Assembly (NCBI GenBank): GCA_048938855.1
Contig: JBHLLT010000003.1
Location: 64,001 to 128,000, forward strand
Source: Promethearchaeota archaeon
GTDB lineage: Archaea > Asgardarchaeota > Lokiarchaeia > Sigyniarchaeales > SOKP01
Length of the DNA stretch: 64,000 nucleotides
Reading direction: 5' to 3'
Shown here: positions 45,827 through 59,786 of the stretch, piece after piece
Numbering within the stretch: the stretch's first letter is position 1
Layout: every line of letters starts with the position of its first letter
Program-made: the position numbers and the translations under genes
Notes under the pieces: generated by a model
What the model was told of the DNA's origin: nothing
What the model saw: only the letters and a program-made list of their open reading frames with translations
Databases searched by the model: none

Positions 45827-48800
45827 ATGGCTTTAAACGTAAATCCTCCAAACTATAGTTGCCCCTTCTGTGGAAAAGAATTGGAATCAAGATTTTTTAA
45901 ATGTTTTAATATATATTGTCAAGGACAAAAGTTTAATGTAGGTAATCTAGTTATATATAGGTTAAATCCAGATTTGGGATTAGGGCGTATAATAAAAAAG
46001 TTGGAGATACCCACATCAAAATCTTTAGATGAGGAGGATTCAAATTTCATATCTAAATATAAAGTCTCTTTTAAAAACAACATTGTAAAAATAATCCATC
46101 CAATTGATCTGATTCATTATGTGTTTGAGTTAAATGACAAAATAGTTACCAAACATGGAGTAGGATATATAAATACAAAGGATTTTCTAGTTCAGGACGG
46201 GGTAATATCATATGAATTTTTAAAAGAAGATGGTAAAAAATCCCAAATTTTCGAAAGTGAAATTTATTCTAAATATGAGACTCCTATTAAGACTCTAATT
46301 TCAAAGCAAAGCTTAGATCCTCCAACTAATTTTTTAATCAAGTATTGGGCAAATTTATTCTATTCTTATTACAAATCATATCAAATAAAATGTATAACAA
46401 ATTCGCGTTTAACTCTAATGCCTCATCAAATTAATGTAACCCATAGATTAGCTGAAGAATTTTTTCCAAGAATTATTCTAGCTGATGAAGTAGGACTTGG
46501 AAAAACAATTGAAGCAGGTATTTATATTAAGGAGATGATTTCGAGAGATCTAGCAGAACGTATTTTAATTATTGTCCCCGCTTCCCTTTTGAAACAATGG
46601 GCTTTCGAAATGAGTAATAAATTCAATCTTGAATTTACGATTTATGATGGAAAGAAGATTAAAGAATTAAAACGCAAAGGTAGTTATAAACATCCAGATA
46701 TACTCCATAATCCTTTCTATTATGATAATTTAATTATATGTTCACTTCAATTTGCTCGAAATAAAAAGTATATTGAATTGTTATCAAGTATCTCATGGGA
46801 TATAGTTATTTTTGATGAGGCTCATCATTTAAGAAGATACCTCATAAACGCTATGACCGGAAACTACCGAGAAACGCTCAATTATGAGTTAGCTAAAACT
46901 TTGAGTTTAAATTCAGAAAGTATGTTGCTATTAACTGCTACACCTTTACAATTACACTCATTTGAGTTATTTTCATTAATTGAGTTAATCCATCCAGAGA
47001 CCTTCGAAAACTTTAGTGATTTCGAACATTTCAGGAAGAATATGCCATTCATTAACTTAATGATAACAAACTTGAATAATATTGATAAACTGAATAATTT
47101 TGAAGTTAAAAACACAATTAAACTTCTTAAAGACTTGAAGTATATTGATAGAAATAAAAATCTAACCCAAATTCTAGCAGAAGTAAAAGATGATTCATTT
47201 AAATTACAATTGTTAAATAGAATTGAAGAAGATCACACTTTATCTAAATTTTTAATTAGAAACCGTAAAAAAAATGTATTTACTGATGATCTATTAAACA
47301 AAAGAATCGTAAATACAATAATGGTTATCCCAACAAAGGAAGAATTAGATATTTATAATGAAATCCGTCTTTACTTAGCAAATATTTATAATTCGTCTTT
47401 AACTAAAGAAAATGTCGGAATTGGATTCATAATTACAACTCTGCAAAAACTTTTGACCAGTTCCAAACAATCATTTCTTAAAAGCATTGAAAGGAGGCTA
47501 GATCAACTCGATAGATATAAGGACATTTTTCTGGATACTACAATTATAAAGGAAGGAGATCCTGAATATTATGAAGCAGAAATAGAAGAACAATACCTTG
47601 ATAGTGAAATATTTGATACCTTTAACAATAAAACAGCTCAAGAAAAGAAAGACGAGGTCATTGATCTCCTTAATCAAGAGAAGATCTTAAAGGAGTATTA
47701 TGATAAACTAAACGCATTATCATATGATTCGAAATCAGCTAAATTAATTGAATTGTTAGATCATATCTATTCGCAAAATCCTCGGGAGAAAATAATAATT
47801 TTCACTCAGTTCGTTGATACCTTAAAATTCTTGAAATCTCTAATAGAGAAACATAATATTAATTATGATGTTGAGTTATTTTTTGGAGGATTAGATAAAG
47901 TACAAAAGGACGAATCAGTTGAGAGGTTTCGCTCGAGTAAAAAATTCTCAATATTGATATCTACTGAAATTGGTGGTGAAGGGCGGAATTTCCAGTTCTG
48001 TCGTGTTTTGATAAACTATGATTTACCATGGAATCCAATGAAACTGGAGCAAAGAATCGGTAGATTAGATAGAATTGGTCAAAAATCAAAAGAAATTTAT
48101 ATTTATAATATATTTATGGAAGGTACAGTAGAAACAGATATTATTCATGCCATCCTCAAAAGGATTAATCTTTTTGAAGAATCTATCGGGATTTTGGAGC
48201 CAATAATTGGCAGGATTGAAAAAGATTTTAAAGGAGTAATTTTTGCTGAAGAAGACGGAAAAAAACGGAAAAAATTAAATGAATTTTATCGAACCCTTGA
48301 TGAAGAAATAAGGAAAGCAAAAGAGATTGAGATGCAGTTAGATGATCTTATGATTGATAAAAAATCTTTCCAAATGGAAGGATTGATTACCTCATTAGCT
48401 TCCTGTGTGGATGTTAAACTTACTTATAACGAATTGTACTTATTGATGAAATTATTTTTTGAAAATGAAGAAAATTTGTATGGAAAATTGATAAAGATAC
48501 AAGAGATAGAGGAAGAGGATATTCAAGATTATTATTTTCCCTCTAAAATTGTATTAAAAGATACTTTATTAAAAAATCCTAAATATCAATTTCAGAATAA
48601 ATATACAGGTACATTCAATTTAGATCTTGCAAGAAAAAAGGAAGAGATTGATTTTTTTGCTTTAGGACATCCATTTATAAACAATATTTTGGATTTTTGC
48701 AGAAGTGATGAATTTAAAGGAAACTTTAGTGAGTTATATTTAGATAGCAAAGAATTAGAAAACTATTATAATCTCAAACTAATTCATGATAATGACTTGT

Positions 48801-49438
48801 ATTTATTTGTTTTTTCAGTTAAATTCCAAGGCTATATAATAGAAAGCCAAATCTCAGCTATTGTGATTGATAAAAATGGAAATGAAATTAAAGACTTTGT
48901 AGATATAATATTGGATATTAAAAATTTCATTAAAATTTATCTTTTAAATGAAAGCCAAGAGAATTTGAATATTAATTATAATCTTATCAACGATCTCCGG
49001 GAAGAAGCAAAAAATATCGTTAAAACTAAAACATCCATTTGGAAGAGAGAAATTAAAATCCTTAATGACAGCATTTTTGATCAAGAGAAGAAGAAAAAAG
49101 AAAAAATATATGCTCATAAAAGGAGAACTCTAAATCTTCGACTTGAATCATTAGCAAATAATTTAGAGCAAAAACAAAATAAAAGACCTACAGCTCGCCA
49201 ATTGCATAATATCGAAAAAATAACAGATGTCGAACGGAAAAAAGAGCGATCAGATTATTTTAAAAAATTAGAAGAAGATATTAAATTCATTCATCAAGAT
49301 ATGAAATCAACTAAAAAGAAATTAGATGATTTACAATTCGAATATGAAGATCTCAAAAATGAAATGATTAAACGAAATAAATCAAAATTCTATACAAATC
49401 TCATTTCATTTGCATTATTAAAAATTGTGAATTCTTGA
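45827..49438 (+). CDS. SNF2/RapA-like SF2 ATPase with N-terminal Zn ribbon
   Basis: LADEVGLGKT, DEAHH, TATP, GEGRNFQ and EQRIGRLDRIGQ; N-terminal CPFC...C-x4-C. Confidence 0.9.
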   Translation: MALNVNPPNYSCPFCGKELESRFFKCFNIYCQGQKFNVGNLVIYRLNPDLGLGRIIKKLEIPTSKSLDEEDSNFISKYKVSFKNNIVKIIHPIDLIHYVFELNDKIVTKHGVGYINTKDFLVQDGVISYEFLKEDGKKSQIFESEIYSKYETPIKTLISKQSLDPPTNFLIKYWANLFYSYYKSYQIKCITNSRLTLMPHQINVTHRLAEEFFPRIILADEVGLGKTIEAGIYIKEMISRDLAERILIIVPASLLKQWAFEMSNKFNLEFTIYDGKKIKELKRKGSYKHPDILHNPFYYDNLIICSLQFARNKKYIELLSSISWDIVIFDEAHHLRRYLINAMTGNYRETLNYELAKTLSLNSESMLLLTATPLQLHSFELFSLIELIHPETFENFSDFEHFRKNMPFINLMITNLNNIDKLNNFEVKNTIKLLKDLKYIDRNKNLTQILAEVKDDSFKLQLLNRIEEDHTLSKFLIRNRKKNVFTDDLLNKRIVNTIMVIPTKEELDIYNEIRLYLANIYNSSLTKENVGIGFIITTLQKLLTSSKQSFLKSIERRLDQLDRYKDIFLDTTIIKEGDPEYYEAEIEEQYLDSEIFDTFNNKTAQEKKDEVIDLLNQEKILKEYYDKLNALSYDSKSAKLIELLDHIYSQNPREKIIIFTQFVDTLKFLKSLIEKHNINYDVELFFGGLDKVQKDESVERFRSSKKFSILISTEIGGEGRNFQFCRVLINYDLPWNPMKLEQRIGRLDRIGQKSKEIYIYNIFMEGTVETDIIHAILKRINLFEESIGILEPIIGRIEKDFKGVIFAEEDGKKRKKLNEFYRTLDEEIRKAKEIEMQLDDLMIDKKSFQMEGLITSLASCVDVKLTYNELYLLMKLFFENEENLYGKLIKIQEIEEEDIQDYYFPSKIVLKDTLLKNPKYQFQNKYTGTFNLDLARKKEEIDFFALGHPFINNILDFCRSDEFKGNFSELYLDSKELENYYNLKLIHDNDLYLFVFSVKFQGYIIESQISAIVIDKNGNEIKDFVDIILDIKNFIKIYLLNESQENLNINYNLINDLREEAKNIVKTKTSIWKREIKILNDSIFDQEKKKKEKIYAHKRRTLNLRLESLANNLEQKQNKRPTARQLHNIEKITDVERKKERSDYFKKLEEDIKFIHQDMKSTKKKLDDLQFEYEDLKNEMIKRNKSKFYTNLISFALLKIVNS

Positions 49439-49444
49439 GATAAT

Positions 49445-49975
49445 TCATTTCGAATCAACGTTTTTGATCATTATTTCCACTAGGTTTAGGAAGGCTTCTT
49501 CCACTTTTTCCCCGGTTTTTGCAGAAGTTTCAATATAAAAAGTATCTTCTTTTTTGGCAAACACTTCCGCGTTTTCTCGTTCATAGAGTTCATCTCTTTT
49601 GTCGATCAAATCCACTTTATTACCAATAACCGCAAAAGGTATACTATCACCTGCATAATCCCGTAAATCGGATAGCCATTCTTCAAGTTCTTCAAATGTA
49701 TGCCATCTAGAAAGATCAAAAACAATTAGGGCTCCATTAGCTCCATCAAAAAAACTAGATCTTAAAAATTTATATCTATCTTGACCACCGATATCCCAAA
49801 TCTGTATTTTTATAGTATCACCATTATTGTGAATTGTCTTTGAAAGGAAATCTGCTCCTATAGTCAATTTATATCTGAAAGAGAACTTATCTTCAACAAA
49901 TCTATGTAATAACGATGTTTTACCTACAGCACCAGGTCCTATAATTATCATTTTAAAGACATAAAGGTGTGAAAT
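49445..49975 (-). CDS. Rab-like small GTPase (probable ATT start; track start 49951)
   Basis: GPGAVGKT, TIGADF, WDIGGQ, GNKVD and ETSAK. The frame extends upstream as ISHLYVFK behind a GGTGAG SD. Confidence 0.88.
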   Translation of the reverse strand: MSHLYVFKMIIIGPGAVGKTSLLHRFVEDKFSFRYKLTIGADFLSKTIHNNGDTIKIQIWDIGGQDRYKFLRSSFFDGANGALIVFDLSRWHTFEELEEWLSDLRDYAGDSIPFAVIGNKVDLIDKRDELYERENAEVFAKKEDTFYIETSAKTGEKVEEAFLNLVEIMIKNVDSK

Positions 49976-50118
49976 ATATTCTCACCATATTGAATGTTCA
50001 TATCTAATTTGCAATTCTAATAAATAATCTAAATTCAATATTTAAACCTTTTCCAAAACATTGAGTTTAAATAGAAATTCTTGTTAAGCTTGACAAAATT
50101 CGAAATTAGAGAATGTAA

Positions 50119-50649
50119 TCATTCCCCAAAGGTATTTTTTACAATTAGTCGTGTTAGTTGAGTAAATGCTTCTTGAATGTTTTCACCAGTTTTCGCTGAA
50201 CTTTCAAGATAGGAATAATCTAATTTCTCAACAAAATGATTAATCTCATTTTGGTCGAAAGATTCACCAATTTTGGGTACCAAATCCGATTTATTCCCCA
50301 GAATCACGATTGGAACTTTTTCTTCAATTATCACGTTTAAATCAGAGATCCATTCTTTCATTTTTGAAAATGTCTGTGGTCTTGAAAGATCAAATACCAC
50401 TAATGCCCCATAAGTACCCTCATAAAAATTTCTACGTAATATTTTAAAACGTTTTTGTCCTCCAATATCCCATATTGTGAGCAGAGCAAACGAGTCTTTC
50501 TCAAACTCTACTAATTTAGAATTGATTTCCACCCCAATTGTGAACATATAATCGAAGGAAAACTCATTTTTAACAAATCTACGAATGATTGAGGACTTTC
50601 CAACTCCTCCAGGTCCAATTACTATAATTTTTAGTACATATTCATACAT
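50119..50649 (-). CDS. Rab-like small GTPase
   Basis: GPGGVGKS, TIGVE, WDIGGQ, GNKSD and ESSAK motifs. Confidence 0.92.
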   Translation of the reverse strand: MYEYVLKIIVIGPGGVGKSSIIRRFVKNEFSFDYMFTIGVEINSKLVEFEKDSFALLTIWDIGGQKRFKILRRNFYEGTYGALVVFDLSRPQTFSKMKEWISDLNVIIEEKVPIVILGNKSDLVPKIGESFDQNEINHFVEKLDYSYLESSAKTGENIQEAFTQLTRLIVKNTFGE

Positions 50650-50801
50650 ATATGGTATTCAAGCTTACATTATTTGTTCTTATAGTAATATTTAGAGATA
50701 TTATGCTAAATTTGTGGGATAGTTCCTAATTAAATTGCAGTTAATAAAAACATTTATAAATATATTAAATTCTGATACAAGAGAACAAATTATGAATATA
50801 T

Positions 50802-51332
50802 TTACTCCTTAAATGAATTTTCAACTATCATTTTAGTAAGTTCAACAAAAGCACTTTGAACATTATCACCCGATTTTGCAGATGTTTCAATATAAATACT
50901 TCCAATCTTATCAGCATAATCTTTAGGTTCGTTTCTATCAATTACTTCACCAATTTCAGAAATCAGATCTAGCTTATTTCCAAGAATTACAAGAGGAACT
51001 TTTTCTTCTATCAACTCATTCATGTCAGAGACCCATTCTTTCATTTTTGAATAAGTCTGGACTCTTGTAAGATCAAACACCACTACTGCTCCATGAGTTC
51101 CTATATAAAAATTTCGACGTAGATTTTTAAACCGATCTTGACCGCCTATATCCCAAATGGTTAATCTTGCTTTCTTGTCTGAATCATATTCTATAATCTT
51201 AGTTGAGAAATCTACACCAATTGTGAACTGATAATGTAAGGTAAATTTATCCTCACTAAATCTACGGATGAGACTGGACTTTCCTACGGCTGCTGGGCCA
51301 ATAACAATGATTTTAAATGAAAGCTCTACCAT
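50802..51332 (-). CDS. Rab-like small GTPase
   Basis: GPAAVGKS, TIGVDF, WDIGGQ, GNKLD and ETSAK motifs. Confidence 0.92.
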   Translation of the reverse strand: MVELSFKIIVIGPAAVGKSSLIRRFSEDKFTLHYQFTIGVDFSTKIIEYDSDKKARLTIWDIGGQDRFKNLRRNFYIGTHGAVVVFDLTRVQTYSKMKEWVSDMNELIEEKVPLVILGNKLDLISEIGEVIDRNEPKDYADKIGSIYIETSAKSGDNVQSAFVELTKMIVENSFKE

Positions 51333-54019: not shown

Positions 54020-54126
54020 AATTTACTACTCCTTTAAAAGTCCTTTATTTAAAACTTCAAATTTTGGATATTAATTTCTTAATTATTATGAAAGTTTTAT
54101 CTGTATTCAAAATTATTATATTAATT

Positions 54127-54215
54127 AGATGTTCGAAAATGATGATTAATGTGGTTTGAGTAATAATACCCCTTTTTACAATGATAATGGAGCAGAGATC
54201 TGATTTCGAGCATCT
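54127..54215 (+). ncRNA. Box C/D guide sRNA (snoRNA-like)
   Basis: 12-bp terminal stem AGATGTTCGAAA/TTTCGAGCATCT. Box C ATGATGA 54139-54145, D' TTGA 54156-54159, internal GTAA/TTAC stem, C' ATGATAA 54181-54187, box D CTGA 54200-54203. Guides of 10 and 12 nt. Confidence 0.75.
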
Positions 54216-58943: not shown

Positions 58944-59786
58944 TTATTTGTTACTATAATTGTAAAATCCTTTTCCAGATTTTACTCCTAATTCTCCTTT
59001 ATCAACCACATCTTTAAGCAAATCAGGTGGTTTATCATCCGGAAGACCGCTATTCTTAAAATATGACATTTCGATATCATAAATTACATCTAATCCAATT
59101 CTATCCATAAATTGAAATGGACCATATTTATTTATGATAAAATATTGACAGAAAATTTGCCAAGCTTTATCTACTGTCTCAATATCGGCATAACCACCTG
59201 CCCAAATTTTTAAACAATCTTTTTTAATTGCTCTCCATATTCTATTAAGAACAAAACCATAACATTCTTTTTTAACCTCAAGAGGCACAATTTCAATACT
59301 CTCTATCCATTTCTTCCCTTTCTGGAACGTTTCCTCACTAGTTTTAGTTCCTCGCATGATATCTGCTAGAGGCATGGTGAAAAGATTGTAAAAATGAATA
59401 TTCAATAATTTATCTTTGCGATCAACAACATCTTCCAATTTTGAAACCGGAATGGAAGAGCTATTAGTAGCTAATATAGCATTTAGAGGTGCTGATTTGT
59501 CAATCTGGGCAAAAATTTCTCTCTTTAATTCAAGCTTCTCTGGAATTGCCTCAATGATAAGATCTGTGTTTTTTACGCTATCAGAGAGAATAGAATAACT
59601 TTTTATTTCTATTTTAATGTTTTTCTCGAGAACTTTCTTTTTGATATTCCTAATAAAATCATCCAATCCTTCCGGATTTGCTTCAAATACATTTATATCA
59701 TATCCGTAAAGAGCAGATTTTTCAATAATTTGTTTTCCCATATACCCTGCTCCAATTACAGAAATTGTTTTAATTTTATCAGCCAT
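58944..59786 (-). CDS. 3-hydroxyacyl-CoA dehydrogenase
   Basis: GAGYMG, IEAIPE, ATNSSS, GFVLNR, GPFQFMDRIGLD and LGVKSGKGFY motifs. Confidence 0.9.
   Translation of the reverse strand: MADKIKTISVIGAGYMGKQIIEKSALYGYDINVFEANPEGLDDFIRNIKKKVLEKNIKIEIKSYSILSDSVKNTDLIIEAIPEKLELKREIFAQIDKSAPLNAILATNSSSIPVSKLEDVVDRKDKLLNIHFYNLFTMPLADIMRGTKTSEETFQKGKKWIESIEIVPLEVKKECYGFVLNRIWRAIKKDCLKIWAGGYADIETVDKAWQIFCQYFIINKYGPFQFMDRIGLDVIYDIEMSYFKNSGLPDDKPPDLLKDVVDKGELGVKSGKGFYNYSNK

Follow-up and report, generated by a model that had tools for sequence, protein, structure and literature searches.

A box C/D guide RNA gene in a Promethearchaeota genome with a guide complementary to helix 28 of 16S rRNA

An unannotated small guide RNA gene is present in the genome of a Promethearchaeota archaeon, on the plus strand at positions 54127–54215 of the window (the whole 64,000-nt stretch of DNA analysed, C62:64001–128000 of a 3.95-Mb genome with 30% GC). 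The gene is an addition to the archaeal box C/D family, an ordinary and expected class of RNA. As judged from its sequence and those of its homologs, it very probably encodes a stand-alone box C/D sRNA that would be transcribed from its own TATA promoter, assemble into an sRNP, and direct 2′-O-methylation of pre-16S rRNA at the position equivalent to E. coli C1383.

Results

Boxes, stems, and genomic setting

The gene comprises the following features (window coordinates).
54090–54100, plus strand: candidate archaeal promoter, a BRE-like GAAAG followed by a TATA-like TTTTAT, 27 nt before the stem
54127–54215, plus strand: box C/D guide sRNA gene, predicted at ~89 nt with ends set from the stem rather than from reads; supported by homologs
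54127–54138, plus strand: 5′ arm of the terminal stem, supported by pairing and two-sided changes relative to slid controls
54139–54145, plus strand: box C, AUGAUGA, the same in all homologs
54146–54155, plus strand: D′ spacer/guide of 10 nt with conserved core UGUG(G); 5–7 bp with 16S helix 28, chance-level match to 23S ES9
54156–54159, plus strand: degenerate box D′, UUGA (UUGA, CUGA, or AUGA among homologs)
54160–54180, plus strand: inner stem-loop (stem I of the C′/D′ K-turn, 4 bp in this copy) and first bulge base; its first pair changes among homologs
54181–54187, plus strand: degenerate box C′, AUGAUAA, with the tandem G-A/A-G core kept in most homologs
54188–54199, plus strand: D guide of 12 nt, complementary to the 3′ strand of 16S helix 28
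54200–54203, plus strand: box D, CUGA, invariant among homologs
54204–54215, plus strand: 3′ arm of the terminal stem, covarying with the 5′ arm

As described in the initial annotation, boxes C and D are perfect, boxes D′ and C′ are degenerate, and the terminal stem (54127–54138 with 54204–54215) consists of 12 pairs, one of which is U-G. This U-G pair turns into a C/A mismatch on the minus strand, which bears out the stated preference for the plus strand. The locus is likewise intergenic, flanked by a divergent CMD-family gene at a distance of 107 nt and followed after 58 nt by a GNAT gene. A stem-loop said to join D′ and C′ is present, although in this copy it amounts to only 4 bp and does not fold independently.

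A census of the genome returned 965 C…D box pairs, 94 of them non-coding, and this element alone among the 94 has a stem of at least 10 bp. It is also the only one to combine a stem of at least 5 bp with an rRNA-complementary guide of at least 10 (none in a reversed-rRNA control), a count that represents a lower bound, since the census demands pairing at −2 to −9 and overlooks a second sRNA on contig C45. The folding energy of the element by itself is unremarkable (z −1.27). Rfam gave no match in the window beyond weak CD-box matches of 13–18 bits, below the gathering threshold, and the best Rfam snoRNA over the element itself had an E value of 1.3. Elsewhere in the window, motifs identify three tandem Rab-like small GTPase genes encoding 168–176 aa (49445–51332, minus strand) and a SNF2/RapA-like helicase gene encoding 1203 aa (45827–49438, plus strand). 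The tandem GTPases are among the features that point to Lokiarchaeia.

Conservation and distribution within the genus

Of 54 genomes examined from the genus, 15 carry a homolog, one copy in each, and six metagenome contigs have one as well. Among the genomes, blastn recovered nine, pattern searching 13, and a covariance model one more, with no match to the reversed pattern in 161 genomes. Scans of all genomes and of metagenomes returned no homolog outside the genus, the remaining matches being without the stem, and a loose phylum-wide pattern returned chiefly coding noise.

Boxes C and D are unvarying across all homologs, an invariance that for box C holds partly by construction in pattern-found homologs but not in the nine found by blastn. 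The terminal stem spans 11–14 bp with 96.4% of its cells paired, as compared to 23–52% in slid controls, and four of its pairs are changed on both sides (the sequences are related, so no p-value is given). The innermost stem pair is the weakest, being unpaired in 4 of 14. Spacers measure 10 and 12 nt in every homolog, and the D guide is identical in all except G003 and G110, with one mismatch each, while the inner loop and flanks diverge. Conservation in relatives had been set out in advance as a test of the prediction, and it is evident in the invariant C and D boxes and the covarying stem. Together with an rRNA target that can be placed (see below) and with genes for L7Ae, Nop5, and fibrillarin in the genome, this conservation and stem covariation support the assignment as a box C/D guide RNA.

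Nop5 of the carriers is 60–86% identical to that of this genome, and carriers and non-carriers are intermixed, a distribution suggesting that the gene is old within the genus and was lost many times. No copy of this gene was found in 39 of the 54 genus genomes, among them genomes rated 100% complete that have the identical target; the gene is therefore dispensable. In five non-carriers, an in-depth model search detected no homologs, and no guides in a shifted register were found. Copies that appear to be decaying, with a D-guide mismatch (G003 and G110), a broken D′ (G106 and G110), or a broken C′ (G029), fit a dispensable gene (L050, L114, L053, and L055).

Gene neighbourhoods among the homologs fall into three to four different sets. 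A T-rich, TATA-like word nonetheless lies at a similar distance from the stem in most homologs, regardless of the upstream gene (by eye, in AT-rich DNA). Varied neighbour genes and a constant TATA-like distance are consistent with a stand-alone gene. Patchy distribution, three to four neighbourhoods, degenerate inner boxes, and a long flanking inverted repeat would also suit a MITE-like sRNA mimic as in Pyrobaculum calidifontis (Lui et al. 2018, PMC6009581), or a non-functional inverted repeat. The P. calidifontis elements share good C/D boxes, degenerate C′/D′ boxes, and a flanking inverted repeat with the RNA described here. In contrast, they are multicopy (15 copies) and their guides are poorly conserved, whereas the present gene occurs once per genome and its guide is conserved as well as the repeat and matches rRNA. 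The stem changes moreover include G-U-tolerant ones, which are typical of RNA. Because of the single copy number and the guide conservation, a MITE-like or non-functional origin is largely refuted already and is regarded as very improbable.

The D guide is complementary to the 3′ strand of helix 28

The target was read in G111, a genome of the same genus that has both the sRNA and full rRNAs, the genome's own 16S rRNA being unassembled; 16S identity is 97–98% within the genus and most of the family. Positions 1341–1351 of G111 16S rRNA (E. coli 1379–1389) form 10 Watson-Crick pairs and one G-U pair with the D guide, at a duplex energy of −20.6 kcal/mol. These nucleotides form the 3′ strand of the small-subunit neck helix, helix 28. 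The fifth base of the guide faces C1345 in G111, the equivalent of E. coli C1383, and forms a Watson-Crick pair at +5. A 10-bp duplex with Watson-Crick pairing at +5 is the catalytic optimum (PMC7229835). The site is unique in 16S rRNA, and 17 of 1500 shuffled D guides scored equally anywhere in 16S plus 23S. Target strings for both guides had been predicted in the initial annotation, which could place neither; the D target is now placed at 16S C1383, although neither string occurs verbatim in same-genus rRNA, from which the predicted 10-nt D′ target is absent.

Position −4 of the guide is A and lies opposite U in all Lokiarchaeia 16S sequences read; the facing position is C in the seven archaea of PMC4644070 and in the misbinned contig C18. 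The duplex reaches its −20.6 kcal/mol with the Lokiarchaeia U, as compared to −15.8 kcal/mol with C. In the target table of PMC4644070, no mark is predicted for the seven reference archaea at the alignment position matching C1383.

Contig C18, from the genome's own bin, has the D-guide mismatch at −4, but it was rejected as a source for the target, as it is only 79–82% identical to Lokiarchaeia 16S, indicating misbinning. It is the bin's only rRNA contig (C18:1–3181; L003), with 53% GC, linked 16S and 23S, and a ~145-nt 16S insert near model position 825. Another misbinned rRNA, a bacterial-type 16S, was seen in a related Asgard bin (L086, G117:C263), and small contigs of 65–67% GC in this 30% GC genome (C11, C19, C29, C30, and C37) are likely contamination. 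The only exact 12-nt complement of the D guide in the genome (C43:101702) is antisense to a 597-aa ORF, so it was discarded as an mRNA target. Neither guide had a convincing target among the tRNAs, whose coverage is incomplete, or in the 16S and 23S flanks. ARAGORN identifies a tRNA-Sec at C49:41348–41440 (plus strand), and many other tRNAs are intron-bearing.

Candidate pairings of the D′ guide

The D′ core UGUGG is complementary to CCACA, which has a single occurrence in the 4,935 nt of G111 16S plus 23S. That occurrence falls within the helix 28 5′ strand, where a 5-mer would turn up by chance in the 30 nt concerned with odds of ~26/1024. The resulting duplex (positions 933–938) comprises 5–7 bp with energies of −5 to −9 kcal/mol. 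Two metagenome copies interrupt it at −2 and two genomes at −1, and it leaves the invariant A at −8 of the D′ guide unexplained. The leading guess is that the D′ core grips this 5′ strand as a short anchor, a reasonable idea that falls short of being probable. A different target, or none, is a serious possibility as well. Exact complements of the D′ guide elsewhere in the genome resemble chance AT-rich matches and were set aside.

Alternatively, the RNA could be a true double guide whose D′ half methylates C749 (G111 numbering) in ES9 of 23S rRNA, a lineage-specific insertion. The D′ guide of this copy pairs there over all 10 nt (eight Watson-Crick and two G-U), the site is identical in 16 of 16 genus 23S sequences read, and ES9 explains both the invariant A at −8 and the G or A at −2; its family-wide mean score, 7.5, is the best. 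However, the score is equalled by 184 of 1500 shuffled guides (12%) and by 48% of column-shuffled guide families, a −7 mismatch is uncompensated in G018 and G029 (own 23S read in each), and the site is conserved equally where the sRNA was not found. Helix 28 also gives the better duplex energy for seven of nine distinct D′ guides. Methylation at ES9 is considered unlikely. In 16 genus genomes (L120–L139), ES9 contains a short basal hairpin with an invariant loop and 3′ arm, the rest of ES9 being variable; the invariance of this hairpin possibly reflects a protein or tertiary contact.

Joining the D guide to the anchor on helix 28 yields an asymmetric guide, in which D would methylate C1383 and D′ would be a non-catalytic clamp of 5–7 nt on the partner strand. 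This combined scheme is tentative and, taken as a whole, somewhat doubtful; if true, it would parallel eukaryotic extra base-pairing in an archaeon, at a site adjacent in structure. A placement of the two guides on opposite strands of a single long-range helix would also suit an RNA chaperone, the sRNP holding one or both helix 28 strands during folding of the 30S head and leaving no methyl mark. Such a role was proposed in N. equitans (PMC4644070), and a D-guide mismatch is tolerated in two homologs. The D half is nevertheless canonical, with perfect boxes, a 12-nt spacer, a 10-bp duplex, and Watson-Crick pairing at +5 (PMC7229835), and patchy presence speaks against an essential role in assembly. 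A chaperone function alone is judged improbable.

C′/D′ architecture

The C′/D′ motif forms a K-turn closed by a short stem, with a constant 3-nt bulge. The first pair of the inner stem is G-C in most homologs and A-U in G018, G110, and L225. A tandem G-A core is intact in this copy and in 12 of 15 genomes; the three exceptions are broken in the GA of box D′ (G106 and G110) or in the C′ core (G029), and position 4 of stem II is variable. The genome has one Nop-domain gene, nop5, paired with fibrillarin on contig C81. Its L7Ae, encoded on C34, is archaeal in sequence, with I-N-V in loop 9, like the archaeal I-E-V and L-Q-V. K-turn-capable boxes, G-A pairs in D′/C′, spacers of 10–12 nt, an rRNA guide, and genes for L7Ae, Nop5, and fibrillarin thus all place the RNA among archaeal C/D sRNAs.

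Of the eukaryotic hallmarks, poorly conserved C′/D′ boxes alongside strict C/D boxes are observed. Neither a Nop56/Nop58 pair nor a Snu13-type loop 9 was found, and instead of long, variable spacers the homologs have fixed ones of 10 and 12 nt, which are of the archaeal type (PMC7229835). The initial description of the architecture as eukaryotic snoRNA-like is consequently only partly supported: it holds for the relaxed, stem-closed C′/D′ beside invariant C/D and for the terminal stem of 11–14 bp, but not for the spacers, the L7Ae type, or the single Nop5, and there are parallels in Methanococcus. The C′/D′ asymmetry recalls eukaryotic snoRNAs, yet it is not diagnostic, because the spacers are archaeal, M. 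maripaludis sRNAs have inner hairpins, archaeal C′/D′ motifs may be either K-turns or K-loops (PMC8413462), and the genome has a single nop5 and an archaeal L7Ae. Judged by eye against the published lists compared, the trait that stands out most is the long terminal stem.

A bolder interpretation takes the asymmetry for a true step of Asgard archaea in the direction of eukaryotic snoRNAs, with one active guide, a relaxed C′/D′, and extra base-pairing. Boxes C and D are invariant while three of the 15 genomes have a disrupted C′/D′ G-A core, the other verified C/D RNA of this genome (on C45) likewise has an inner hairpin, and in yeast snoRNAs with one guide the second guide region contains short elements for extra pairing (PMC3116282). 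In contrast, spacer lengths and loop 9 of L7Ae are archaeal, Nop5 is single, and the same inner hairpins occur in mesophilic Methanococcus. Decay of one guide is also common among archaeal sRNAs (many "NP" guides), and the RNA is known from one genus, ancestry thus not being indicated. An evolutionary step of this kind is regarded as quite unlikely.

Discussion

The preferred reading remains that of a stand-alone box C/D sRNA acting on C1383. Transcription would start from the gene's own upstream TATA promoter, and the stem of 11–12 bp would bring boxes C and D side by side. L7Ae would bind both K-turns, the inner C′/D′ one less strongly than the terminal one, and a Nop5 dimer with fibrillarin would then assemble. 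Complementarity predicts that the D guide pairs with 16S 1379–1389 (E. coli) in the 3′ strand of helix 28, and by the N+5 rule fibrillarin would 2′-O-methylate C1383 of pre-16S rRNA while helix 28 is still open. The D′ half appears relaxed and would probably be inefficient at methylation, its UGUG(G) core most plausibly anchoring the RNA over a short stretch to the 5′ strand of this helix, a role like that put forward for N. equitans sR17.

The closest RNA in function is sR17 of Nanoarchaeum equitans, a double-guide C/D box sRNA (Dennis et al. 2015, PMC4644070). Its D guide shares GGAGCAG with the present one and is directed to the 3′ strand of helix 28, and its D′ guide is directed to the 5′ strand. 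The targets of sR17 are U1384 and A933 (E. coli equivalents, mapped here), whereas the D target of the present RNA is C1383, one base upstream. The D′ duplex of sR17 is 10 bp, as compared to 5–7 bp in a shifted position for the candidate pairing here. sR17 has a 4-nt K-loop; the present RNA has a long terminal stem and an inner stem-loop. In architecture, the RNA resembles sR102, sR103, sR105, and sR107 of Methanococcus maripaludis, a mesophile, which are ~70–90 nt long with a D′-C′ hairpin and often have a predicted target for one guide only (PMC4644070 Additional file 1). Unlike the present RNA, these sRNAs have C′/D′ boxes near consensus, terminal stems of ~5–7 bp (by eye), and other targets. 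Eukaryotic C/D snoRNAs with extra base-pairing, such as yeast snR75 (PMC3116282), and with relaxed C′/D′ boxes (PMC8413462) are similar in their strict C/D, relaxed C′/D′, one strong guide, and possible auxiliary pairing. They differ in that the RNA described here has spacers of archaeal length, archaeal proteins, and no Rfam snoRNA match, and in that its auxiliary site would be far off in sequence and adjoin D′.

The literature searched yielded no paper describing C/D guide RNAs of Asgard archaea, and each verified gene therefore adds to what is mapped of rRNA modification in the closest archaeal relatives of eukaryotes. The present gene predicts a mark at a defined position in the small-subunit neck; no 2′-O-methyl group is known at the equivalent of C1383 in yeast or human. 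Its presence or absence among close relatives with an identical target provides a natural comparison, and it allows one to ask whether a shortened second guide aids methylation by gripping the partner strand. Alone, it is no proof that snoRNA architecture arose in Asgard archaea.

The second box C/D RNA of this genome, verified in the sequence at C45 ~59270–59350 (plus strand), has perfect C and D boxes and a short terminal stem in addition to its inner hairpin. Its guide complements the P-loop of 23S rRNA, where the N+5 rule designates G2251.
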